Positions 1-63,242 of a DNA stretch of 64,000 nt are shown here, piece by piece (position 1 is the first letter of the stretch; every line of letters starts with the position of its first letter). Below the pieces are notes generated by a model. It saw nothing but the letters and a program-made list of their open reading frames with translations, was not told the DNA's origin and did not search any database. This DNA is from Chiloscyllium plagiosum. Lineage: Eukaryota. A program made the position numbers and the translations under genes. The stretch is taken from contig NC_057719.1 in NCBI RefSeq assembly GCF_004010195.1, positions 49,399,155 through 49,463,154 of the forward strand, given 5' to 3'.

Positions 1-994
1 CACACACCATGGGTGCTGAGGAAAAAATAAGCACTACCGCACTTAGGTGGTAGTGTGGGGGTTAATATTAAAAAGAAAAATAGGTAAAAAGGGGAGTGAA
101 AAAAAAGGATAAAAAAAAATACACAGGAGGGAGGTGGAGTGCATAAAAGAAAAAAAAATACACAGGAGGGAGCACTTTGTGTCTCACTGAAAAAAGAAAA
201 AGAAAAAGAAAAGAAAAAAAAGGGAATGTCTTGATCACACAGCATTGCCCTTTTGTGAAGGGCAGTGTTTGTTAAAAAAAAAATTATAAACAGGAGTGCC
301 TCCCTCCAATTCTATTTTGATTTAGTCCCGACCCTCCCCTTCACTGGTTTAATCACACAGCATTGCCCTTTGATGTGAAGGGCAGTGTTTGTCACTGGCC
401 ACTCGGGTGTTTTCCTATCTTCCTGGTGGTGGAAATTGAATAAAGATTCGTGCACTTTGTGTCTTTCACTGTGTCTCACACCTGCGCCCACACACCATGG
501 GTGCTGGGGATAAAATAAGCACTACCGCACTTAGGTGGTAGTGTGGGGGTTAAATTTTAAAAAAAAGAAAGAAAAAAAAGAGCACTTAGGTGGTAGTAAA
601 AAAAAAGAAAAAAAAAGAAAAAAGAGTACAACCAGGAGACTCCCTGGAGTTGTTCAGGGAGAGGTGGGCGCCGCAGGGAGTGGAGTGCATCATTTCTCCC
701 TCCAATTCTATTTTGATTTAGTCCCTACCCTCCCCTTCACTGTTTTGATCACACAGCACTGCCCTTTGATGTGAAGGGCAGTGTTTGTCACTCGCCACCC
801 GGGTGTTTTCCTATCTTCCTGATGGTGGAAATTGAATAAAGATTCGTGCACCTTGTGTATTTCACTGTGTCTCACATGTGCACACACACACCATGGGTGC
901 TGGGGAAAAAATAAGCACTACCGCACTTAGGTGGTAGTGTGGGGGTTAAATTTTTAAAAAAAGAAAGAAAAAAAATATAAAAAATAAAAAAATA
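1..994 (+). mobile_element. Tandem 5'-truncated Tx1-clade LINE 3' ends (family A: 1-64, 301-553, 639-950, plus small fragments), each A-tailed
   Basis: 641-721 translates SLELFRERWAPQGVECIISPSNSILI*, resembling the recalled C-terminus of Xenopus Tx1 ORF2. It is followed by a shared ~230-bp 3' UTR, a terminal hairpin and an A-rich tail. Confidence 0.82.
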
Positions 995-1066
995 ATAAAC
1001 AGGAGTGCCAGAGGTTCTGCTCACTCTGAGAGCTAGCTCTGAGAAAAAAAACAAAATAAATAGGAG

Positions 1067-2856
1067 ATGGTGGTCGGAAGGTGCTGAGGGCGGTTAGTGA
1101 AGCCAGAAGGTGGGTAGGCCGGCCTGACCACTGTCACCCCGGGCGGGTACTGGGGCGGGCTATCCTAGAGGTGGTCGAAAGGTGTGTCAGGGCAGACCGA
1201 GAACTGGAAGGTGGGTAGGGGCGGGCTGCCTTAGAGTGGTCGGAAGGTGGGAGGGTCAGGGGCTTGCTGGGTCTGTATTGTCTGCACTTTTGTATGTAAC
1301 AGTACTGTCTAATGTACAACTGTCATTGCTGTTGTCTCTTTATATCTTTATGTGAAACTGGAATTTGAGGTTTGTCCTCATGTCCCTGTAAACTGTTTGA
1401 ACGGTAGGGTTTGGGGCCTGGCTTTACTGCTCCTCTCCCTTATAAAATTGCTGTCTCATGTATGCAGCTGTAAACGTAACTGTTTGTTGTAAACTGTTTT
1501 TGTAATTTGTTTAATAAAAAAAAAATAAACAGGAGTGTCAGCGGTTCTGCTCACTCTGAGAGCTAGCTCTGAGAAAAAAACCAAAATAAATAGGAGATGG
1601 TGGTTGGAAGGTGCTGAGGGCGGTTAGTGAAGCTGGAAGGTGGGTAGGCTGTCCTGACTGCTGTCACCCTTTGTTTAATAATAAAAAAAATAAACAGGAG
1701 TGTCAGCGGTTCTGCTCACTCTGAGAGCTAGCTCTGAGAAAAAAACAAAATAAATAGGAGATGGTGGTTGGAAGGTGCTGAGGGCGGTTAGTGAAGCTGG
1801 AAGGTGGGTAGGCTGTCCTGACTGCTGTCACCCTGGGCGGGTACTGGGGTGGGCTGTCCTAGAGATGGTCAAAAGGTGCTGAGGGTGGTTAGTGAAGCTG
1901 GAAGGTGGGTAGGCCATTCTGACCGCTGTCACCCCGGGTGGATACCAGGGCAGGCTGTCCTAGAGGTGGTCAAAAGGTGTGTCAGGGCGGACCGAGAACT
2001 GGAAGGGGCATGGGGTGGACCGAGAGCCGGAAGGTGCGTAGGGGCGGGCTGCCTTAGAGTGGTCGGAAGGTGGGAGGGATGGGCGCTTGCTGGGTCTGTA
2101 TTGTATGCACTGTCTTTTTATGTAACTGGATTGGCTTTTTATGTACAAATGTCATTGTCACTGTCTTGTCATATGTGAAATTGGGATTTGAGGTTTGTCC
2201 TCCTCTCCCTGTAAACTGGTTGAACGGTAGGGTTTGGTGCCTGGCTTTGCTGCTCTTCTCCCTTGTAAAATTGTTGTTGTATACAGCTGTTAATGTTAAC
2301 TGTTTTTGATAAACTGTTTTGTAATTTGTTTAATAAAATTTAAAAAATAACCGGGAGTGTCAGAGGTTCTGTTCACTCGGAGAGTTGGCTCTGAGAAAAA
2401 AAATAAAATAAATAGGGTAGGCCGTCCTGACTTCTGTCACCCGGGCGGGTACCGGGGCGGGCTGTCCTTGAGGCAGTCGAAAGGTGTGTCAGGGTGGGCT
2501 GAGAACTGGAAGGGGCATGGGGTGGACCGAGAGCCAGAAGGTGCATAGGTGCGGGCTGCCTTAGAGTGGCCAGAAGGTGGGAGGGATGGCAGGGGCTTGC
2601 TGGGTTTTCTGGGGACTGCATTGTATGCACTGTTTCTTACGTAATTGTACTGTCTTATATGTACAAATGTCATTGTTACTGGTTGTAATGATTGAAACTG
2701 GGATTTGAAGTTTGTCCTCATTTCCCTGAAAACTGGTTGAATGTCAGGGTTTTGGGCTTGGCTTTGCCATTTCTCTCCCTTGTCAAATTGCTGTTTCTTT
2801 GTATACAGCTGTAAATGGTAGTTGTTTTATAAACTGTGAATTGTTTAATATAAAAT
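1067..2856 (+). mobile_element. Four tandem copies of a second A-tailed unit (family B: ~1067-1524, 1597-1689, 1761-2346, 2414-2856), probably an L1/Tx1-type 3' UTR
   Basis: G-rich GGAAGGTG subrepeats, then a TG-rich segment ending TGTAATTTGTTTAATAAAA plus an A tail. The 5' ends vary and the 3' end is common. No protein motif recognised. Confidence 0.6.
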
Positions 2857-2870
2857 TACAAAAAGGAGAT

Positions 2871-3185
2871 CCCTTGTGATTTTCAGGGAGAGATGGGCAA
2901 TGCAGGGTATGGAGTGTTTCATTTCCCCCTCCAATTCTATTTTGATTTAATCCCTGCCCTCCCCTCCCCTCCCCTTCACTGTTTGATCACACAGCATTGA
3001 CCTTTGTCGAGAAGGGCACTGCTTGTCACTGGCTACTTGAGTGTTTCCTTTCTTCCTGGTGGTAAAATATAAATAAAGATTTACACACTTATTGTTTTTC
3101 ACTGTGTCCGACACCTACACACACACACACACACACGACATGGGTGCGGGGGAGAATTACGCACTACTGTAGTTAGGTAGTTTTT
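2871..3185 (+). mobile_element. Older, diverged Tx1 family A 3' end
   Basis: 2873-2950 translates LVIFRERWAMQGMECFISPSNSILI*. Same UTR with an expanded (AC)n. Flanked on both sides by AAAAAGGAGAT (2860-2870 and 3187-3197), which looks like a TSD. Confidence 0.8.
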
Positions 3186-3316
3186 AAAAAAGGAGATTCA
3201 GAATCTCCTTTCTTCAGGGACAGACTCCGAGCTGGCTGGCCATAGTCAATGTACTGTGCACATGTAAATAAAGGGTGACTTAGTGATGGGATCCAAGCCT
3301 CTGTGCAGTTATTTCA
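3186..3316 (+). repeat. 3' part of the Gypsy 5' LTR (from TATA-like motif to terminal CA)
   Basis: AAAAAAGGAGATTCAGAATCTCCT...GAGCTGGCTGGCC...TGTACTGTGCACATGTAAATAAAG...TTATTTCA aligns by eye with 10558-10667. Confidence 0.88.
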
Positions 3317-5977
3317 ATGGCCAAGAGAGGAAACAATATATGCCTGAAGAACATTCATTCACAAAAGTCGTCTTGAGGTTTGGGTAAGCATTTCTGGCAC
3401 CATTTCTTTATTTGGGAAGCTTGACTCGTTCAATCTTCCATTGACGACTGGGTCCAGTATATGGAAAGAATATTGATATTTTCTTTCTGTGCAAATGACA
3501 TTGGGGCAGATGAAAAGCAATGAGTAATCCTTCTGATTGTTTGTGGACCTGCTGCATTTTCAGTTATAAGGGGCTTAACTTTCCTAGAAAGACACCAGAT
3601 ACTAAAACTTTCCAAGGGTTGATGGATTTGGTTAAGGAGTATTATAACCCCAAACTTCCTCTAATTCTGAGATGCTCTCAGTTTTATTCAACTACTTGAG
3701 AATTGGGGGAATCCATATCGGGAATTTTGATGAGGTTAAGACTGGCAGAGGCATGTGATTTTGGGTTAACCCTGAATAAGGTGCTGAGGGACTGTTTAGT
3801 ATATTGGATTAGTGATATGACCATGCAAAAGCGCCTAATGGCTGAAGCCCAACTGGACTACAACTGGCTTTATCATTAGAAAATGCAGCAAGTGGAGCAT
3901 GAGAGTTACAGGGAAGTGGACACCTTCAACTGTCCGCCTACACCACTTGAGTGTAGGCAATCACAGAGTCTCATGTAGGGCATATCCTGAGCAGAGGGAC
4001 CCTAGGTCAGCCCACAGCAGAACCCCACAACAAAGCCAAGCCTTGGCCAAGTGGTTAAAACTGTTCTTCAGGATTTGGGCCAGCAAGCCATTGTAGTTGC
4101 TGCTGGTATGCGGACTCGAGACAGTAAAGGAGATCTACAAGGTCTGACTCGAGTAAGAAAACTTATAGGCCGGTATACAGGAGAGCGCACACCCTGGAAA
4201 GTTCAGCTACATGTGTGTCGGAACAATTAAATTGCTGAGCTATATCCAAATCAGTATCAGTAATGTTTAGTTAAGTGGTTACCCAGTTCTCATGGAGGTC
4301 GATACTGGCGCTACAGTATCTATGATTGCAGAACCTGTCTTCAACAAGATTCGCTCTGGACTCCAACCCTTAAGTTTGCATATGACCTCAGCCTGACTGA
4401 GAACATACACTGGGTAACCATTACAGATTAAGGGTATGACTTTGTTTCTGGTCTCCTATGAGAAACAGTTGGTGCAGTTATCACTGATGGTGGTAGAGAG
4501 CTCAGGCCCAAGTCTATTGGGGCAGATTTGGGTGTGAAAGATTCACCTGGATTGGGTCAACATTTTTCGATTACAAAATGGTTGCCTCAGTGAAGTCCCT
4601 GGTGAAATACACTGAAATTTTTCAGGAAGGGCTAGGGGCTATCAAAGGGGCCGAAACCCTCTACATGTTGACCAGGAAGCAATTCCACGATCCTGCAAGG
4701 CCCACCAAGTGTAATTTGCCTTACGGGCAAAAGTAGAGGCAGAAATCAGGAGGTTGGGAAGTGCAGGAATCATCAAATCAGTCCACTTTGAGGAGTGGGT
4801 AGCACCGGTTGTACTGATTGTGAAACTTGACGGCTGGATTCGCCTAAACCACTTCTCACAGCTGGATAAATACCCAATTCCTCACATCGTACTCATTGGA
4901 TTTGTACACAAAATTGGCAGGGGTGCTGTGAAGCTGGGCATGAGCCACGCCTATCTGCAATTGTGAAGACTTGAGCAGTCCCAGAAGTACGCTACAATGA
5001 ATACCCATAAGGGTTTATATCAATACACAATCTGCCGTCTGGGGTATCATCAGCCCGCACCCATTTCCAGGGGATCATGGAGAACATTTTACAAGGGCTG
5101 CTGCAGTTTGCCATTTATCTAGATGGTGTACTAATAACAGGGAGGACCACTAAAGAGCACTTAGAGAACCTGGACATAGTGCTTAAACGTTTCTCCCAGG
5201 GAGGGGTATGCCTCAGGAGGAAGAAATGTGTGTTGCAGGCTTCCACAAGTGACCTACTTGGTTTATAGAGTTGACAAAACCAGGTTACACCTGGTAGTCA
5301 AAGGAATCCCAGCTCCGACGTCTGTACTGGAGCTTAGGCCTTTTCTCGGGTTGGTGAATTATTACAGGAAATTCACACATAACCTGGGCTCCATCGTGGC
5401 ACCCTTACACCTGCTATTGAAAAGCAGTCAGCCTTGGAAAATGGCCACGTAGCCAAGACATAGCCTTTTGGAAAGTGAAAAAGCAGCTATCTTCTAAGGT
5501 GTTAGCCCACTAAGATCCGAAGCGAGAGGTGACATGTGCAGGACTGGGGTAGTGTTGGCTCACCAATTCCCAATGGCGCGGAATGCCTGATAGCATTCCC
5601 AATGGAGAGGCACAGCTGATGCTTTCTGGACTTTGGTTCATGCCAAACGTAAATATGCCCAGATAGAGAAGGAAGTTTTGGCAGTGATGTTTGATGTGAG
5701 GAACTCCGACCAATATCTTTATGGATAGGAATTTGTCATAATAACAGATCCATGCTAGGGCTACTGAAGGAAGACAAGGCAGTGCTGCCCATAACTCCCA
5801 GTTGAATTCAGTGGTGGGCCATTATTCTCAGCAGATCATCATCCTGGAAGCCACGTGGCTAATCTGGATGCCTTGAGCTGCCTCCCACTGGCAGATACTC
5901 CACTGATGGTGCCTCCTCTGGAAGAGTCTGTTCTGGTTTTAAACTTCCAGGACATGCTTCTGGTCATCGCTGACAAT

Positions 5978-6308
5978 GATTAGAGTAGATTACTTACAGC
6001 ATGGAAACAGGCCCTTCGGCCCAACAAGTCCACACTGACCCTCCAAAGAGTAACCCACTCAGATTCATTCCCTACCCTATGTTTATCCCTGAGTAATGCA
6101 CCTAACACTATGGGCAATTTAGCATGGCCTATTTACCTGACTTGAACATTTTTGGATTGTGAGAGGAAACTGGAGCACCAAGAGGAAACCCACGCAGACA
6201 CGGGGAGAATGTGCAAACTCTACACAGACAGTCGCCCAAGGCAGGAATCGAACCCAGGACCCTGGTGCTGTGAGTCAGCAATGCTAACACTGAGCCACCA
6301 TGCCGCCC
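5978..6308 (-). mobile_element. tRNA-derived V-SINE (HE1-like) inserted in Gypsy pol
   Basis: Reverse complement reads GGGCGGCATGGTGGCTCAGTGTTAGCA (A box), GGTTCGATTCC (B box), the V-core GAGTTTGCACATTCTCCCCGTGTCTGCGTGGGTTTCC and a CR1-like tail. Confidence 0.88.
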
Positions 6309-6716
6309 ATAATATCTGACTGTGGACACAAAGGAATCTGGTTTTGACAAGACTAAAACAGCTGGTGGTAATGGGGGAAACAAAAGAACCATTACAACCA
6401 GATCTGAAATCTTTCAGGATCCAGTGAGATCAGATCACCGTAGAGGACAGCTTTTTATTACGGAGGGCCAGAGTGGTTGTTCTGAGTGGATATTGCCATT
6501 AGATTCTGCTGAACTCCAACGGGGTCATCCAGGGGTTTCCAAAATGAAGGTGTTGGCAAGGAGTTATGTCTCGTGGCCAGGGTTGGATGCCAACATAACT
6601 ATGTTGGTGAGACAGTGCCCAGAGTGCCAACAGTGTCAAAAATTGCCACCACCAGCACCCCCACATTCATGGGACTGGCCGGATAAAGCCTGTACTCGGT
6701 TACATGTTGGCTATGC

Positions 6717-9350
6717 CATAAGACCATAAAAACATAAGAAATAGGAGTGGAAGTAAGGCCATTCAGCCCATCAAGTCCACTCCGCCATTCATTCGTGGCT
6801 GATGGGCATTTCAATGCCACTTACCCGCACTCTTCCCATATCCCTTAATTCCTTGCAAGATTAAGAATTGATCAATCTGTCCCTTGAAGACATTTACCGT
6901 CCTGGCCTCCACTGCACTCCGTGGCAGTGAATTTCACAGGCCCACCACTCTCTGGCTGAAGAAATGTCTCCTCATTTCCGTTCTAAATTTACCCCCTCTA
7001 ATTCTAAGGCTGTGCCCATGAGTCATAGTATCCCCACCTGATGGAAACAATTTCCCAGCATCCACCCTTTCTAAGCCATGCATTATCTTGTAAGTTTCTA
7101 TTAGATCTCCACTCAACCTTCTGAACTCTGATGAATACAATCCCAAGATCCTCAGCCATTCATCGTATGTTAGGCCTATCATTCCAGGGATCATCCATGT
7201 GAATCTCCGCTGGACACATTCCAGTGCCAGTATGTCCTTCCTGAGGTGTGAGGCCCAAAATTGGACACAGTATTCTAAATGGGGCCTAACCAGAGCTTTA
7301 TAAAGTCTTAGTAGTACCTCACTGCTTTTACATTTCAACTCTCTTGAAATAAATGACAACATTACATTTGCTTTCGTAACCACGGACTCAACCTGCAAGT
7401 CGACCTTTAGAGAATCCTGTACTAGCACTTTCAGATCCCTTTGTACATTGGTTTTATGAATTTTCTCAGTACAAGACCTCACATTTGCTCACATTGAATT
7501 TCATCAGTCATTTCTTGGACCATTCTCCTAAACTGTCTAAATCTTTCTGTAGCCTCCCCACCTCCTCAGAACTACCGCCTTGTCCACCTAACTTTGTATC
7601 ATCAGTCCCCAGTCTCATCATCCAGATCAGTTACATATAAAGTGAACAGCTGCGGCCCCAACACTGAACCCTGCAGGACACTACTTGTCACCAGCTGCCA
7701 TTCCGAAAAAGAGCCTTTTATCCGAATTCTCTGCCTTCTGTCAGACAGCTAATCCTCAATCCATGCCAATAGCTCACCTCGAACACCATGGGCCCTCGCC
7801 TTACTCAACAGCCTCCCGTGAGGCACCATACCAAAGGCCTTTTGGAAGTCTAGGTAGATAACATCTACGGGGTTTCCCTGGTCTAACTTTCTTGTTACCT
7901 CTTCAAAGAATTCTAATAGGTTTGTCAGGCATGACTTCCCCTTTCTAAATCCATGCTAACTTGTTCTAATTCAACCCTGCACTTCCAAAAATTTAGAAAT
8001 CTCTTCCTTAACGATGGATTCTAGAATTTTACCTACAATCGAGGTTAGGCTAATCAGCCATAATTTTCCATCTTTTGTCTTGATCCTTTCTTGAAAAAGG
8101 GGGTTAGAATAGTGATTTTCCAGTTTTCTGGGATTTTCCGTGACTCCAGTGATTTTTGAACCAATGCCTCTGCTATTTCTTCAGCCACCTCCCTCAGAAC
8201 TCTAGGATGTAGCCCATCTGGGCCAGGAGATTTATCAATGTTTTGACCTTTTATCTTATCAAGTACTTTCTCCTTTCTGATGGCCACCATACTTAACTCT
8301 GCCTCTTGACTCTCCTTAATTGTTGGGATATTACTCATGTCTTCCACTGTGAAGATTGACACAAAGTATTTATTAAGTTCTTCAGCTATTTCCTTATCTC
8401 CCATCATTAGCCTTCCTGCATCAATTTGGAGCGGCCCAATTTCTACTTTTGCCTCTCGTTTGTTTCTTTTGTATTGAAATAAACTTTTACTATCATTTCT
8501 AATATTACTGGCTAGCTTACCTTCACATTTGATCCTCTCCTTCCTTATTTCTCTCTTTGTTATCCTCTGTTTGATTTTGTAGTCTCCCCAATCTTCTGAT
8601 TTCCCGTGCTCTTGGCCACTTTATAGGCTCTAATTTCCTGAGTTCCTTCATCAGCCATGGGTGCCTAATCCCCAAGCACCCCCCAGGTAATCTTTCTTTT
8701 CTTTGGGATGTACCTCTGTACTGTGTCCTCAATTACATCCAGAAACTCTTGCCATTGTTGCTCTACTGTCTTCCCCACTAGGCTATGCTTCTAGTCAATT
8801 TTCATCAGTTCCTCTCTCATGCCCCTGTAATTACCTTTATTTAACTGTAGCACCAATGCATCCAATTTTGCCTTCTCTCTTTCAAACTGCAGACTGAACT
8901 CCACCATATTATGATCACTGCCTCCTAAGTGTTCCCTGACTTTAAGATCTTTTATAAAATCTGGCTCATTACATAGCCCTAAGTCTAGAATAGCCTGCTC
9001 CATTGCAAGCTGTCCCAAAAAGCCATCCTGTAAGCATTCCATGAATTCCCTTTCTTTGGATCCACCAGCAACATAATTCACCCAGTCTATTTGCATATTG
9101 AAGTCCCCCATGATCACTGTGACCTTACCTTTCTGACATGCCCTATCTATTTCCTGGAACATCTTGCGCCCTTGGTCCTGACCACTGCTGGGATGTCTGT
9201 ATGTAATTCCCGTTATGGTTTTGTTTTGTGGTTCCTCAACTCCATCCACACAGACACCACGTCATCTGACACTATATCATTTATTGCTGTAGACTTAGTT
9301 TCATTTTTAACTAACAGGGCAACCCTGCCCCCTCTGCCCACCTCCCTGTC
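6717..9350 (-). mobile_element. CR1 LINE (5'-truncated, internally deleted) inserted in the Gypsy integrase
   Basis: APE motifs MGDFN, LDL and GSDHN; KSPGPDGLHPRVL; LYKALVRPHLEYCVQFW; short-repeat tail. Splits the integrase motif LHVxYA|GPF. Confidence 0.92.
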
Positions 9351-10319
9351 AGTCCTTTCATGGACTCAAGGTTCTTAGTCATTGTGGATGCCCAATCAAG
9401 TGGATGGAGATGCATACTGTTCATTCAGAAAACTCAGGAATGATGATTGAAAAGCTGAGAGCATCATTGTGATACACAGACTCCTGGAAGTATTAGTTAT
9501 GTACAATGGGTCATCATTCGAGAATTTCCTGAAGTTGAATGGCATTCAGCACGTTTGTATAGGTCCATACCATCCATCGTCCAATGGTCTGGTGGAAAGA
9601 ACAATCCAAACTTTAAAGACAGCTTAAAGAAACACCTTACATAGTGTCACTCAATACAAACTGTCCTGGTTCCAGTTCAATTATCAGATAGCCCCAGCAG
9701 AATTACTGATGGGGAGAAGACTCCACACCAGGTTAAATCTGATATTCTCAGACCTGGGGGTGGGTGGGGGTGCAGTGTGAAATGGCAGCAGGAACACCAA
9801 TGCTGGCCACATGCTGCCCTAAGCAAGAGAGGCAATTTACTTCAGGAGACAAAGTTTGGTGCCAGAAACACAGAAATGGCCCTCTATGGGTACAAGACAA
9901 GGTTGACACGAGGTCAGGTCCTGTGACTTACAAAGCTCGGGTGGGTGATACTTCTTATAAACACGTTGAACCTGAAAGTTCTTACCTCACAAACAGAGAA
10001 ACAGAGCAAAACATACCTGGTTCCTCAGAACAACCAGAGGCCTGTCAGAAACCGTGGGCTTTCCCCCTCTGTCTAGTGTCGAGAAAACTTCAGATTCTGA
10101 GATGGATGCAGCCTCGATACTGTTACTGCTGGAGGAAGAGGAAGAAATGCTCCGGACGCAAGAAACGGGCTATTGTCTAATACACACTGCTCATGTCAGA
10201 GTCTGAGTCAGAGGAACTGGACCTGGAGTGAAAACATTGAAGGAAAAGTTACAAGAGAAACATCAGGCCTACATCCATGGTCTTGTGGAGTTGGAGGGGC
10301 GGGGGGGGACTGCGGGAAG

Positions 10320-10667
10320 TGTAGTGATTGGAACCAGGTGGATCTTGTTGACTATGAAATTCTTGATTGAATTTGTTAAGGGCACTGCTTGTCACTGGCC
10401 ACTCGGGTGTTTTCCTATCTTCCTGGTGATGGAAATTGAATAAAGATTCGTGCACCTTGTGTCTTTCACTGTGTCTCACACCTGCACACACACACCATGG
10501 GTGCTGGGAAAAAAAAACACTACCGCAATTAGGCGGTAATGTGGGGGTAAAGAGACCCAGGAGATTCAGAATCTCCTCATTGATGCTGAGCTGGTTGGCC
10601 ACTGCCAGTGTACTGTGCATATGTAAATAAAGAGGGACGGGTTACTGGCCTCTGTGCAGTTATTTCA
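10320..10667 (+). repeat. Gypsy 3' LTR, interrupted by a Tx1 3' end
   Basis: TG...CA termini following the PPT. The distal part matches 3191-3316. Confidence 0.85.
10378..10550 (+). mobile_element. Tx1 family A 3' end inside the 3' LTR
   Basis: Closely similar to 378-553, and sits directly upstream of CAGGAGATTCAGAATCTCC. Confidence 0.85.
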
Positions 10668-11870
10668 GAAATAGATGAGAATAAATTACTCTACTCAAAG
10701 GTTTGCTAATTATAAAACTCTGTAACCTGAAGAGTTGTAAATGCTGCATCATTGAATATATATAAGCTGGGATAGAGTGAATTTTTGTGTCATTGGAATC
10801 AAGGAAAATGATTCCTTAAGTCAGGGAGTTGAAGTTGATGCTCAAGATCAGCCATGATCATATCAAAGGGCAGGCTCAACATACCAAATCGTCTATTCAT
10901 GCTTGTGTTAACTCCTCTTTCTGGGGTTCTTGTGTTTTTAACTAAATATCCTGGACAAAGAAACAGAAAACAATGTTTCTAATGTTGCTTATGATATAAA
11001 GCTAAATGGAAACTTTAGCTTTAAGCCCACAAAGAGATCGCAAGGAGGTGCAGACAGCTTAAATAAGAGGGAAAAACAAAATGGCTGGTGGAATTTCATG
11101 TGAAGAGATGTGAGACTGTTCTCTTTGTAAGAACAGAAAAGGAGAATATTTTTGCAAAGGCATTAAGTTTGTAAATGATAATGTTCACAGTGTCCTGGAT
11201 GTCCATATCACAGGAATACACAAAATTAGTATGCAGGTACAGTAAGAATGAGGAAAGCAAATGGCATGAGGGCATTGATTGCAATGGGATTGCAGCACAG
11301 AAATGAAAAACTCTTTTTATCATTGTGCAGGGTTTTGGAAAGACCATACCTGGAATAGTGTATGTAGATTTGGTCAAAATATTTAAGGAAGGTTGTACTT
11401 TCATTGAAGGTGGTATGGTGAAAGCAGACGGGAGTGGTCCCTGGAATGAAAATGTTGTCCAATAATGAGTGACTGCATAAATTGGGCCAATATTCTCTGC
11501 AGTTTTGAACAATGAGAGATGACTCATTGAAACATACAAGATTCTAAAGGGTAGACGCTGCTGTTGCTCTTTGCTAGTGTTCTAAATACAGAGTACAGTC
11601 TCTGGACAAAAGAAGGATCTTTTTGGACTGGAAGGAGGAGAATACTTTTCACTTAGTGTTGTGAACCTTTGCAAGTCTTTACTCAAGGGTTGTGAATGCT
11701 CCATCATTTAAAGCTCATAAAAAAAAGATTTTTGGTTTCTCAGGGAATCAAGAGATATGGGAAATGAGGGGAAATGTGGAGTTGAAGCCCAAGGTTAGCC
11801 ATACACGAAATTGAATGGCAAAACAGGCTTGATACCATAACATGGTCCACTCATGCTGCTATTTTTAATT
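10668..11870 (+). mobile_element. Old CR1 3' fragments (two or more); the first may be the Gypsy insertion substrate
   Basis: Degenerate motifs such as GACCATACCTGGAATAGTGT, TCATTGAAACATACAAGATTCT and GATCAGCCATGATC. Confidence 0.6.
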
Positions 11871-25756: not shown

Positions 25757-26105
25757 TTGGAACAGTGGCACAGTCATTAGCACTGCTGCCTCTCAGCGCC
25801 AGGGACCTAATTTCAATTCCAATCTCGGGTGACTGTTTGTGAGGAGTTTGCACATTCTCCTCGTGTCTGTGTGGGTTTTGTCCGGGTGCTCCGATTTCCT
25901 CCCACAATCCAGAGATGTGCAGGTTAGGTGAACCGGCCAAGCTAAATTGCCCATAGTGTTCAGGGATGTGTAGGTTAGGTGCATTAGTCAAGGATAATAG
26001 GGTAGAAAAAAGGGTCTGGGTGGGTTGCTCTTTGGAAGGTCGTTGTGGACTTGTTGGGTCGAAGGGTCTGATTCCACACTGTATGGATTCTAAGTTCTAT
26101 TCTAA
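25757..26105 (+). mobile_element. V-SINE (HE1-like) in an AP5M1 intron
   Basis: A/B-box-like head, V-core GAGTTTGCACATTCTCCTCGTGTCTGTGTGGG, GCTAAATTGCCCATAGTG and CR1-like tail. Confidence 0.85.
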
Positions 26106-38700: not shown

Positions 38701-39543
38701 CAAAGCAGCAAAAGAAATCAATCATCTTCTAATGTAGTCAGATCTTCGGTATTTAACTAACGTGATTATTTCTTGAGCTTCAGGTGTATTCTTCCACAAG
38801 GGTTACTGGATAGTGTCTGTTGTGAAAAGGCTGATAGATATTTTCCCTAATCCAGGCAAGGAGGGTAATTATCAATCATAAAATGCCATGCCGCTGCCCC
38901 AACCAATTCAGTGTTGGACTGGCATAGAATAACAAATGGAAGTGAATTAATTAAGTGAGCTATTGACACAATAAATAAAAACGTTTAACGGAACATATTT
39001 TGATAAATTCATATGTTCAAGTTCCAACTGAACTAATTTTTTAAAATTATGTCAGGAGATCCAAGATCATTCATGCTGACTAAAAACTTCAGCAGAAAAA
39101 GAATGAATTTCGTGATTTGAGTGGAACATATATATGATTGCCAATTTTATGGAAGAACAATACTTGCATTTTGAATTAATTGACAAACTTTATAGACAAA
39201 TGATTTAAATATGAACCTATTAATTTCCTTTTGTACAATGATACATCTTAAGTCTCTGGCTTTAGTAATTTTCACTGTCTTAAAATTTATAACCTAAATC
39301 TTCCCTATTATTAATGCAGTACAAAACTTGGAGTTGCAATTGACATGCATAAAATTGTGGTAATATATATCCTTTATTGAGATAAAACCATGAGGCCATT
39401 ATATTGTCTGCAAACTATTTATATGCGTTCAAAATTAACTTTGAAATAAAACTATTCTCAGTGAGGCTGAAAAGTATTGCTGACCACAAGGTGAGACCTT
39501 GCATCAATGTCTTAAATCAATCCAAATGTCAATAATGTACTCA

Positions 39544-39745
39544 TGATTTGGAGATGCCAGTGTTGGGCTGGGGTGTACAAAGTTAAAAATCACAACACCA
39601 GATTATAGTCCAACAGGTTTAATTGGAAGCACTAGCTTTTGGAGTGCAGCTCCTCCACAGCCACCTGATGAAGGAGTGGCGCTCTGAAAGCTAGTGCTTC
39701 CAATTAAACCTGCTGGACTCCAATTTGATATGGTGTGATTTTTAA
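39544..39745. mobile_element. Penelope-derived palindromic element (second family) with hammerhead motif
   Basis: Arms GTCCAACAGGTTTAATTGGAAGCACTAGCTTT and AAAGCTAGTGCTTCCAATTAAACCTGCTGGAC. Other copies at 49062-49222 and 63032-63242. Confidence 0.75.
39662..39696 (+). ncRNA. Minimal type I hammerhead ribozyme motif
   Basis: CAC-CTGATGA-A-GGAG(TGGCG)CTCT-GAAA-GCTA-GTG: stem I CAC/GTG, intact core, stem II, palindromic AGCT stem III, CUA cleavage triplet. Confidence 0.55.
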
Positions 39746-48900: not shown

Positions 48901-49061
48901 CTTGATTGAGAACATGAACTTTGCATTTAAAACTGCTTATAATAATCTTTTTATAGGTTACATTATTTACAGTTGTAATATTTAGTGGAAATATAGAATC
49001 TTGGATATATCTGTTAAGTCCTAGAAAGCCACCCAAATACTATGTTACAATCATTCTGATA

Positions 49062-49222
49062 TGATGTGCAGGTGTCGGTGTTGTACTGAAGTGGACAAAG
49101 TTAAAAATCACACAACACCAGGTTATAGTCCAACAGATTTATTTGGAAGAAGCAGTGCCTCGAAAGCTAGTGCTTTCAAGTAAATCTGTTGGACTATAAC
49201 CTGGTATTGTGTGATTTTTAAC
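49062..49222. mobile_element. Palindromic Penelope-derived element with central deletion
   Basis: GTTAAAAATCACACAACACCAGGTTATAGTCCAACAGATTTA / TAAATCTGTTGGACTATAACCTGGTATTGTGTGATTTTTAAC. Confidence 0.75.
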
Positions 49223-58345: not shown

Positions 58346-59791
58346 AATATCACAACTCAGATACCTTCCATATCTTCCTCCCCTCCCCTTCCCTCTAACT
58401 TCCCTCTTCCATTGCCTTCACCTCTGTGCCCATTTAATTGGACAAGAGTCCTCCCCTGCCAATGCTGTGTCTTTGGATAACTGAGGAATAATATGTAGAT
58501 GAGTAAAAGAAGGAAAAGACTCCTACGGTTTATTATGGACCAGTTAGTATTGTATTTTGTACTATTGATTTCCAAAGTCTCAATCTTATAGTACAGAGTC
58601 ACTGTATCAGAATGTAGTTTTTACAGCATCCCATCTAAAGAATGGGGCACTAGGGAAATACAAATGATGTTCTTTACATGGAGCTTATGACCTGCTTAAT
58701 CTTTTAATATTTCCAACAATTTATAAACATTTTTGGTCCCTGTCACCTGCACCAATACATAAAATACCAAACATTCTGTCAGAGCTATTGGTTTCATTGC
58801 CATTTCTCTTCTTAAAGTTCTTCTGGAAGTCTATTTCCCACAACAGTATCCTACTGTTTGCATGAGTTTATTCAAATCTAGTGAAACGTAGTGGAACTAA
58901 GACCAAAAGCAATCATTCAACACAAGGTGAGACCCGGCTGACTTTCTACTTGATGGACTTCGTGAACAAGAAGCTCATAAAGAAACTTGATTGAAAGAAG
59001 CCATAAAGTGATATTTAAACTAAACAAGCCTTTTTTATTAGAGAGGTGAATTTCTGGTTGAAAACAATAAATGTCCTGAGTTTTAAGTTTAGGTTCCATT
59101 TTACCACATATACATTGGGAATATAATTTCACATATGTATAAATGTCCACTGACAGGTGCATGGTATCCATTTCTGTGCAGGATAGGCGAGGCTTGTTTG
59201 CTGTGTAACTGAAGAACTAAGCACTGGGTGCAGGTGCCACTTTTGATTCAATCCAGACACCCTCTTCACAGGATCAGCAGCTCAATAGGATAATAGCAGG
59301 AGTGTCCATGAAGCCAACTTAATATCCAAGAAAAAGTACCTGACGTTGGGAGAGGGGAATTAATTTGGTCTCACTAAGGTGCCCTTCAGGAATATTACAA
59401 ATTAGACTGGTTAGTGCGACAAATTCTTTCAATGCACTGGATGTGGTGTCTGCAAGAATTAATTGTTTCTGTTATAGTTAAAGCCATGGTGCACAATGGA
59501 GGGTAAATGTTTCCTCCCTCTGTGGAAGCTTTCTCCTGTGTTAGTTGTTGTCTGTTTCTGTCTTATTCAGAGCACTATAGCAGGTAGTTAGAATTGTTTT
59601 TAGGTTTGATCCTGTTATGACTCATTTCTGGTAATTATATGTATTATATTATTACATGACGTCTTTTAGAGTCATACTGTCATAGGGATGCACAGCACAG
59701 AAACCAACTCTTTGGTCCAACTAGTTCTCGTCGACCAGGTATCCTAAATTAATCTAGACCTATTTGCCAGCACTTGGCCCATAATCCCATT

Positions 59792-60092
59792 GGGTGGCAT
59801 GGTGGCTCAGTGGTTAGCACTGCTGCCTCACATCACCAGGGTCCCAGGTTCGATTCCAGCCTTCAGCAACTTTCTGTGTGGAGTTTGCATATTCTCCCCG
59901 TGTCTACCTGGGTTTCCTCCCACAGTCCAAAGATGTACAGGTCAGGTGAATTGACCATGCTAAATTGCCCATAGTTTTAGGTACATTAGTCAGAGGGAAA
60001 TGGGTCTGGGTGGGTTACTCTTCAAAGGGTTGGTGTGGACTTGTTGGGCCGAAGGGCTTGTTTCCACACTGTAGGGAATCTAATCTAATCTA
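59792..60092 (+). mobile_element. V-SINE (HE1-like) nested in a CR1 tail
   Basis: GGGTGGCATGGTGGCTCAGTGGTTAGCAC (A box), GGTTCGATTCC (B box), V-core and (TCTAA)n tail. Confidence 0.9.
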
Positions 60093-60547
60093 AACCCTTC
60101 CTGTTCCTATACCCATCCGATGCCTTTTAAATGTTGTAATTATACCAGCCTCCACCACTTCCTCTGGCAGCTCATTCCATACACACACTACTTTCTGCAT
60201 GAAAACATTGCCCCTTAGATTCCTTTTAAATCTTTCCCCTCTAGTTGTGGACTCTCCACCCCTGGGAAAAGACCTCGTCTATTTACCTTATCCATGCCCC
60301 TCATGATTTTATAAACCTTTAACATCACCCCTCAGCCTCTGATGCTCCAGGGAAAATAGCTCCAGCCTAATCAGCCTCTCCCTATGGCTCAAACCCTCCA
60401 ATCCTAGCAACACTCTTGTAAATCTTTCCTGAACCCTTTCAAGTTTCACAACATCTTTCCTGTAACAAGGAGATCAGAATTGCACACAGTATTCTAATAA
60501 TGGCCTAACCAATATCCTGTGCAGCTGCAACATGACCTCCCAACTCC

Positions 60548-60776: not shown

Positions 60777-63031
60777 CTCCCAACTCCTATGCTCAATGCT
60801 CTGACCAATAAAAGCAGGCATGCCAAATGTATTCTTCACTATTCTATCTACCTACATCTTCACTTTCAAGGAACTATGAACCTGCACTCCAAAGTCTCTG
60901 TTCAGCAACACTCCCCTGGACATTACCATTCAGTGTATTAGTCCTGCCCTGTTTTGCCTTTCCAAAATGCAGCATCTCACATTTATCTAAACTAACCCCA
61001 TCTGCCACTCCTCAGCCCATTGGCCCATCAAGGTACCTTTATACTCTGAGGTAACCTTCTTCACGGTCCACTACACCTCCAATGTTGGTATCATCTTACT
61101 AACCATACCTCCTATGTTCACATCCAAATAATCTACATAAATGATGAAAAGCAGTGGACCCAGCACCGATCCTTGTGGCACACTGTTTAATCAGTGTGAG
61201 TTGCTGAAGGAAATCTTTAGAATGTAATAAAGAATGAAGTGAATGTGTAACTCTGTCCATGAAACTCTCCGTCACCAGAGGTCATGCAAAATGTACCATG
61301 AGCTACTGTGATCCAGCCCTTTATCTTATGAAGAAATGTTCTGTGGAAAGTATCTCCAAAATTTTAAAAGTTCACCAGATAAAACTCTGAAGTTTCATCT
61401 CCTCATCTCTTCCAAGCCACCAGCTTCCATCATTTTAATTATGTGTACAAGTAGGTAACTGTATAAAAATACTCTGTGGAATTATGGGTTTTATAATGAA
61501 CATCCCTACAAAGTAATGAGGATTTTTTTTACACAACAATAGTTGGACCACAGCTATATTTGGAAAGTTGCTGCTATTAAATTAAGTTGTCTAAAACTGC
61601 AATAAGTAAACAGTGAACTGGGATAGCGTCAGGAAGGGACATAAAATCCTTGAGATATGTGATTGTCTCCACTGAAGCAGAGAAGACAGAGGAAATTTAA
61701 TTTCTTCTTATTAAGTATGTTGATAAAAATTAATTACAAAACATTTCATCTGTTGGTGGAATCAGTGGTGAAGGTCCTTCTGTTTAAAATAATTACTGAG
61801 AGTAGGATATTAGGTAAATTTAGAGGTTTGTTAGAGCATGGAACGTTTCACTGCAGGGAGTGGTTGAGGCTGCAGCTTGTAAGGGATGATGCAGAGATAC
61901 AAGGATAGAGTGAGCAGTGGGGTTAGTTTTGAATTTCCTGAGAAAAATGTTGAATATTTTCTAAGAACATTTCTGATATTATAGTGTTTGGCTGGCAGCT
62001 TTTTTTGTAGGATGAGATACGGAACACATAACGAATGATTCTATTAAAACCCAGCAATCTTGCTGAGTCATTTGTTAATGGCTTAATGAAACTCTGAAGA
62101 AATTTAACACACACTAATCGCACTGTTGTATAAAAAGAACATTGTTCCAAATAAAGCAATTTATCAAGGCAAGATGAGATTTAACGTTCTACCTTGCAGG
62201 TAGAGTGAAAATGGCATTTCAGCCTTAATAGCATTGAACTCATTTGGAATATGACAGAGTTAGAATGAGAGAGCAGAGAAAACTAACATCACCATTCACC
62301 TAGCACACAGAGAAAAGTTAGCAATTGCTGAATTCAGAAATTCAATCGAACATCATCAGATTCACATATGATGCTCAAGCTAGGAAAGGACCATTATAAA
62401 TGAACATCAGGCTTTCATTAAGAGCATCTGAAAATTGCATGAGGGTCTACACCTGAAAAGAATACTGTTCAGAAATGAGCATCTCAAAAGGTGGATAGTG
62501 AGGTTGACCAGGATCACTGGGAGAAGACAAGGAATGGGCAAGTAAGTGACATATTTGATGGCTAAAGAAGTACCCCATTGTTAGAGAAATTATCTACTCA
62601 GTACGCTGCTAATTATCAATTTCGTCTGCAGTGTTGCAGAAATAAAAGTGAAAAAACAAAATATCTCTCACATACTCCCAGGGTGTTGAGGTCCATACTC
62701 TATTCTATAATTGTGTTTTACATGGTAGTCCCAAGAAAGGACAGTAAGAGACCTCAAAGCAATAACCATGAAAAATTAGATGGGGAACCCATGTGGGGAA
62801 TGACGTAAGAAAGCCCCTCTGGGACTTTGGGTACTATTACAGGAATGGGGTGTCACCCCCCCCTTTCGAAATGTAATAAAATCATATTATCATCTTCTAA
62901 AATTACTCCATCACACTGCCTGAAGATTGTTTGGGTAGTGGATTCTTAATTCATGAAAAACTTCAATACATATAAAGTGTCCATGAGCTCAGAAAAGGCA
63001 ATGACACTCCCCAGTATTTTTCTAAGCTAAG

Positions 63032-63242
63032 AATCACACAACACCAAGTTATAGTCCAACAGGTTTAATTGGAAGCACACTAGCTTTCGGAGCGATGCTC
63101 CTTTATCAGGTGACAATCACTTGATGAAGAAGCATCGCTCCGAAAGCTAGTGTGCTTCCAATTAAACCTGCTGGACTATAGCCTGGTGTTGTGTGATTTT
63201 TAACTTTGTACACCCCAGCCCAACACTGGCATCTCCAAATCA
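63032..63242. mobile_element. Palindromic Penelope-derived element (same family as 39544)
   Basis: Near-perfect inverted arms of ~80 bp around GACAATC. Each arm carries a hammerhead motif with one core substitution. Confidence 0.8.

Follow-up and report, generated by a model that had tools for sequence, protein, structure and literature searches.

Crocodilian Tx1 LINEs such as Tx1-8_Crp and Tx1-4_AMi prefer LTR retrotransposons (PMC4494074, Kojima 2015). In that study, a family is regarded as target-specific when one sequence type is found in >20% of its flanks, hitchhiking is tested with 5'-truncated copies, and tandem insertions sandwich a target site duplication (TSD) (PMC4494074). Family A, the LINE analysed here in a window of 64,000 nucleotides (the whole stretch of DNA examined), likewise inserts into an LTR retrotransposon, but its site is the TATA box of a Gypsy LTR, whereas the main text on the crocodilian families gives no site inside the LTR element and does not use the word Gypsy (PMC4494074). 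SINEU-3 and Tx1-Mar in Mariner-N4_AMi form tandem insertions and raise the same hitchhiking question as family A; however, their target is a DNA transposon, which provides no paired-LTR clock, and the account given of them does not discuss target loss of the kind seen in our 3' LTR (PMC4494074). The endonuclease of Tx1L from Xenopus laevis nicks almost only its Tx1D site in vitro, and Tx1L resembles family A in that both are LINEs entering a different mobile element at one particular site, although Tx1D is a DNA transposon and the family A target is an LTR, with the family A enzyme lying outside the window (PMC1950540). Loss of target bases instead of their duplication is a known outcome of L1-type insertion (PMC4494074). 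Compared with such target-site truncation, the loss described below takes promoter boxes out of an LTR and is indistinguishable from a later deletion.

Targeting of LTRs by Tx1 families is already published, and the insert in the 3' LTR is a further example of such behaviour; among the papers listed in searches of the open literature, none reports Tx1 at the TATA box of an LTR. The gain lies in a single, well-dated case and in an idea, open to testing, about which way arrays grow, the paired LTRs being an internal clock which indicates that the LINE family used the same promoter site for a long time and across subfamilies.

A LINE end in the 3' LTR and its junctions

The initial annotation had placed a ~170-bp family A 3' end just upstream of the CAGGAG site, within 10378..10577. 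The end is indeed there, and can be refined to 177 bp at 10380-10556, degenerate short tail included, the sequence on either side (10320-10379, native LTR, and 10557-10577) belonging to the LTR (Table 1). Homology to family A spans 10378-10551. When 10290-10700 was compared with the window by BLAST, 10374-10551 matched 374-553 with 91.1% identity (E 1e-68) and 770-949 with 90.0% identity (E 6e-66), and 10378-10667 matched 3012-3316 with 70.4%. All family A matches of this query lie on one strand, in 1-3185 or at the 3' LTR site, and the search found no family A copy elsewhere in the 64 kb. The insert ends directly before the CAGGAG site, the position taken by the array in the 5' LTR: CAGGAGATTCAGAATCTCC begins at 10558, right after the insert, and the identical site follows the array at 3190. 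For a single insertion in 64 kb, landing by chance within 10 bp of this site and with this orientation has a probability of about 2 in 10,000.

Table 1. Coordinates of the LINE ends, the LTRs and the host element within the window
Feature	Position	Strand	Basis or remark
Array of truncated ends of families A, B and C, all head to tail	1..2868	+	14 junctions, 124 to 3190
Open frame and stop, 5' end of longest family A copy	639..721	+	Translation, 27 codons
Family A copy abutting the 5' LTR	2869..3189	+	Minority, more diverged subfamily; differs at 33-37/161 sites from the other three copies
5' LTR remnant, 3' of array	3190..3316	+	20/111 sites differ from 3' LTR
Decayed Gypsy-type internal region	3317..10319	+	RVT_1, Integrase_H2C2, rve_3
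Purine-rich tract, putative polypurine tract (PPT)	10287..10319	+	Sequence
U3 5' part of 3' LTR, starts TG, native LTR	10320..10379	+	Contigs of X1, X5 and X10 begin at 10320
5' junction, microhomology	10373..10379	+	Family A alignment begins at 10374; paralogous LTRs match to 10379
5'-truncated family A LINE 3' end	10380..10556	+	BLAST 90-91% to 374-553 and 770-949
Remainder of 3' LTR	10557..10667	+	Pairwise alignment with 5' LTR

Family A copies start at 297, 639, 2869 and 10380, and their 3' ends, with an A-rich tail, coincide or nearly so; the truncation point of the insert thus differs from the other three, as had been claimed. At its 5' junction the letters AA are exactly common to LTR and LINE, and 5 of the 6 letters at 10374-10379 agree with the major family A class. 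Short 5' microhomology is a feature of L1-type insertions.

Junctions were compared on 10000-11000 at 80% likeness, using one raw run (X19) and three contig sets (X1, X5, X10) from three organisms; joints are cited from among the 15 listed of 306, and loose ends from among the 24 listed of 1832. One empty-site joint, 10379>10557, skips the 177 letters of the insert (X5 and X10, and one read of X19), and another runs 10369>10558 (X1, X5, X10). Paralogous LTRs follow the window sequence as far as 10369 (106 contigs in X5, 96 in X10) or 10379 (86 in X5), beyond which they have a CCAAT box, and in the empty forms a TATA-like box stands immediately 5' of CAGGAG. Between 10379 and 10557, the paralogous LTRs of all three organisms have ~37 bp that include a CCAAT and a TATA-like box. 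The 3' LTR has thus lost both boxes together with the upstream duplicate, and the 177-bp insert stands in for these ~37 bp. The annotation had seen neither TSD nor TATA and had suspected a target deletion. The first two observations hold: no TSD is visible around the insert at the 3' LTR site, an upstream copy of the junction motif is lacking, and the TATA-like box is absent. The ~37-bp loss supports the deletion, which may date from the insertion or from a later time. A degraded TSD at 10332-10340 and 10555-10563, with an extra 5' piece of 37 bp, was considered and rejected, 10320-10379 being native LTR.

The host element and its LTRs

A SINE-like repeat and an antisense LINE split the Gypsy internal region, which also contains many stops and frameshifts. 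Pfam matches were obtained in 3 of the 7 segments scanned: RVT_1 at 5011-5265 (E 4.7e-8), Integrase_H2C2, the integrase zinc finger, at 6313-6726 (E 3.1e-10), and rve_3, an integrase core fragment under its cut-off, at 9451-9624 (E 1.3e-5). Reverse transcriptase 5' of integrase is the Gypsy/Ty3 order, and TG...CA LTRs with a PBS-like TGG, here at 3318 after the 5' LTR remnant, and a purine tract are further traits of such elements; env was not seen. The antisense LINE, which splits the integrase at ~6720-9350 on the minus strand, has an APE endonuclease (Exo_endo_phos_2, E 1.4e-7) and is presumably CR1-like. The SINE-like repeat lies in pol at 5978-6309 and has further copies at 25765-26105 and 59791-60093.

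The 3' LTR extends over 10320-10667. At its start, 217 (X1), 247 (X5) and 225 (X10) contigs with unrelated flanks begin at 10320 (agreement 0.34), and depth drops to flank level past the bin ending at 10679. Its remainder contains the CAGGAG target end (10558-10563), AATAAA and the terminal CA, and both LTRs end in TTATTTCA, at 10667 and at 3316. The 5' end of the Gypsy element lies before position 1, and a 4-6 bp TSD of its own would have one copy outside the window; it is gene order that pairs the two LTRs. They had been described as visibly diverged, and they are: of 111 aligned sites, 20 differ between the remnants, and the alignment has 4 gap runs (K2P 0.21), and the 3' LTR has two private deletions relative to the 5' LTR. 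In organism B, a contig covering 10588-11000 departs from the window at 12 of 413 letters, which makes the Gypsy element older than the divergence of organisms A and B. The target end is overlapped by a perfect 8-bp inverted repeat (10559-10577; 3192-3208), which is unchanged in both LTRs, while the remainder differs by 18%; the 3' LTR remainder that includes it folds with z -2.5, and 4 of 200 shuffles were equally good.

Family A and the array in the 5' LTR

Within the array, which runs past the window start, the ends are separated by A-rich tails and CAGGAG-like junctions. With at most one mismatch, ATAAACAGGAG has 10 matches in the window against 1.8 expected, and 9 of them fall within 1-1760. 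Judged by eye, GGAG, or a form of it with one letter changed, closes 13 of the 14 array junctions in fixed register. The 5' truncation, A-rich tails and recurring junction motifs indicate that family A behaves like a target-primed LINE, and 5' truncation, a common 3' end and an A-rich tail are among the traits of a Tx1-clade LINE. The 27-codon frame of the longest family A copy (638-718), which is retained in frame in the diverged abutting copy, reads like the C-terminus of a LINE ORF2, perhaps of Tx1 type. No family A RT lies in the window. The Tx1 label of the initial annotation found no confirmation in four protein searches: Pfam gave no match to the 27-residue frame, none of 4 candidates scored, and Atlas gave no match. 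Two protein matches to the ORF2 tail (E 2-4e-4) were rejected as repeat-inflated hits to unrelated repeat proteins. Family A probably belongs to the Tx1 clade. Its AATAAA and 3' hairpin (z -2.9 and -2.8) might instead suggest an LTR, DIRS or Penelope end, a classification we do not favour, the copies being 5'-truncated, A-tailed and downstream of a coding frame. A 24-bp family A motif had 0 matches in viral contigs and genome contigs.

Other units share the array. A 55-bp unit of equal length, C (1006-1060, 1536-1590, 1701-1754 and 2357-2411), precedes each of four family B ends, and judging from this arrangement C and B may together form a single composite element; unit C, which comes after the TATA-CAGGAG motif, might derive from an LTR and have been carried along. 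Positions 1506-1834 are a 164-bp tandem duplication with 98% identity, and this part of the array therefore grew by local duplication and not by new insertion. Between 130 and 290 are very short internal family A pieces, each with its own A-tail and junction motif. Early-ending family A copies (10411-10517) with A-tails are present in other organisms, and the short internal pieces suggest internal priming or early polyadenylation.

Site preference in the window and in the genome

How specific is family A for this site? The annotation had regarded the second insert as internal replication of target specificity, and with respect to site preference within this LTR that view stands. It does not extend to the genome, where at 80% likeness family A depth in run X19 exceeds LTR depth 19-30 to 1 (~5,830 against 308 for U3 and 191 for U5), figures that support only "thousands" and "hundreds" since the mean flank depth, taken over 8 of 10 bins after two bins over another repeat had been dropped, is as low as 0.83. 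With such an excess, strict specificity is unproven. Long arrays, diverged LTRs, related LTR families or off-target copies could each account for it. Set against Kojima's flank criterion, the family A ends of the window are all at the site, whereas genome-wide there are 19-30 family A ends per detected LTR.

The same excess is what would be expected if targeting were not dedicated: a LINE that is abundant and cleaves A/T-rich sites with a loose preference would have met in the TATA box one hot spot of many, and the two hits in one element would reflect its abundance. The TATA box is indeed like the L1 cleavage consensus TTTT/AA (PMC1950540). We nevertheless consider this explanation unlikely, because the window ends share one site and the array junctions a fixed register, and because the same motif recurs in other organisms: among the 12 rows listed of 58, 8 join family A to family A, and 5 of these 8, from organisms B and C, have an A-rich run and a GGAG end, so that arrays at the CAGGAG site are common. 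The explanation concerns specificity and not independence, and is thus compatible with an independent second insertion in the 3' LTR. A metagenome scan with a 17-bp LTR motif returned 120 loci, among which no real LTR copy was found; BLAST against both LTR regions gave 12 matches, of which one exceeded 30 bp (32 bp).

Evidence for an independent second insertion

LTR replication copies U3 into both LTRs. The family A site is at the TATA box, hence in U3, and a single family A end in the U3 of a parent element could therefore have been copied into both LTRs of this one, with the 3' copy later shortened at its 5' end and overwritten by a younger copy, or the 5' copy mutating much faster. We compared four family A copies (376-553, 772-949, the abutting copy and the insert) over 161 ungapped columns. 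The insert differs from 376-553 at 12 sites, from 772-949 at 14 and from the abutting copy at 35, and the earlier statement that it is nearer the copies at 301-950 than the abutting copy is thus correct. The comparison that the annotation had proposed, of family A distance with LTR distance, is ambiguous: the distance between insert and abutting copy (35/161) is at the level of the LTR pair (20/111; Fisher p 0.54), as common inheritance would predict. Common inheritance would also account for two of the three two-against-two sites, 10385 and 10388, at which the insert pairs with the abutting copy; the third supports another grouping. Nor do differing breakpoints weigh heavily against it, since a later deletion would hide a shared 5' breakpoint.

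Support for independence comes from rate asymmetry and subfamily states. Changes are one-sided, with 27 found in the abutting copy only and 6 in the insert only (p 3e-4), or 28 and 5 (p 7e-5) when the other young copy is used; without CpG columns the ratios are 17:3 and 18:2, and equal tip branches are rejected (LRT 19.5, p 1e-5). The 3' LTR is not slow-evolving, being the copy that departs from the majority at 6 of the 6 U5 positions listed. Loose ends at 10412 (540 raw reads) reveal a variant class with which the abutting copy has four states in common, namely one T fewer at 10410-13 and the same letters at 10417, 10436 and 10438, and the insert, judged by eye, has the other state at all four. 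The differences of the abutting copy therefore match a genome-wide class and are not private decay. Moreover, the insert is closer to the young copies than the LTRs are to each other (p 0.012 for 12/161, p 0.026 for 14/161), closer than a separation as old as the LTR pair would leave them. If U3 held a sense LINE end with its AATAAA, the RNA would also be expected to end before R, and inheritance through the parent U3 requires two extra events. For these reasons we find it very unlikely.

Rate asymmetry and subfamily states, with the same site and orientation in both LTRs, support the reading of the annotation, and the insert in the 3' LTR is very probably an independent second insertion at the CAGGAG site. 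A contig of organism C with 17 differences over 305 letters (10062-10369) is, on sequence comparison, a likely orthologue, paralogues of that region having 25-28 differences in about 144; the fit stops at 10369 and its final 107 letters, which may be an empty site or a different insert, do not match, so this likely orthologue lacks the 10379/10380 junction, a further point for independence. Another possibility is that no LINE insertion took place here at all: ectopic recombination or conversion would have brought in the occupied 3' segment from a different LTR already occupied, or the LTRs would stem from different integrations. This would suit the divergence of the LTR pair (K2P 0.21), the hundreds of LTR copies as possible donors, the absence of a TSD around the insert and of a visible TSD for the Gypsy element, but is highly improbable given an internal region that keeps its order, the PBS-like site first, RT ahead of integrase and the PPT last, and paralogous LTRs that mostly leave at 10369 or 10379 (96-106 and 86 contigs) with no large donor class among the joints listed.

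A possible mechanism and the growth of the array

The independent insertion may be pictured as follows. Both LTRs of an old Gypsy element would have been empty when it integrated. A LINE with a poly(A) tail would then enter at the TATA box that LTRs of this family carry, by target-primed reverse transcription and with duplication, by an enzyme we postulate, of the short site ending in CAGGAG that is observed. The 5' LTR would have been hit early and again and again, and the 3' LTR in a separate, later event in which the incoming copy came from the majority class of family A. In the 3' LTR, a nick at the TATA box and a second cut after GGAG are proposed, with the left flank joined over 2-6 bp of microhomology and the observed loss of ~37 bp with CCAAT, TATA and the upstream duplicate. 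The loss may have occurred at insertion, as a target-site deletion, or with about equal probability afterwards, perhaps together with the 5' part of a longer insert. LTR TATA boxes might offer a LINE a safe multicopy landing place, where entry would also disable the promoter of a competitor.

Inserts number more than ten in the 5' LTR and one in the 3' LTR. Divergence in the array declines from the LTR end, from 33-37/161 for the abutting copy, through 52, 43 and then 31 of 236 for the family B copies, to 10/161 at the window start, and this gradient fits growth at the upstream duplicate. A tentative and somewhat doubtful extension of this idea is that the endonuclease needs LTR sequence on the CCAAT-TATA side, so that copies would enter the 5'-most duplicate, arrays would be one-directional with the oldest copy next to R, and the deleted 3' LTR would have stayed at one insert. 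If true, the 3' LTR would be a natural deletion test of target recognition within one element. Subfamily differences may imitate age along the array, and a later deletion may have taken away a larger 3' array.

Other features of the window

Overlapping frames free of stops, six in all and 169-230 codons long, occupy both strands between 23436 and 24156, near an AT-rich region; the single one scanned had no Pfam match, and the frames are probably low-complexity sequence. No Pfam family matched 11 other long frames of the window. A MITE-like short repeat family with internal inverted matches is present at 39543-39745, 49061-49222 and 63024-63242.
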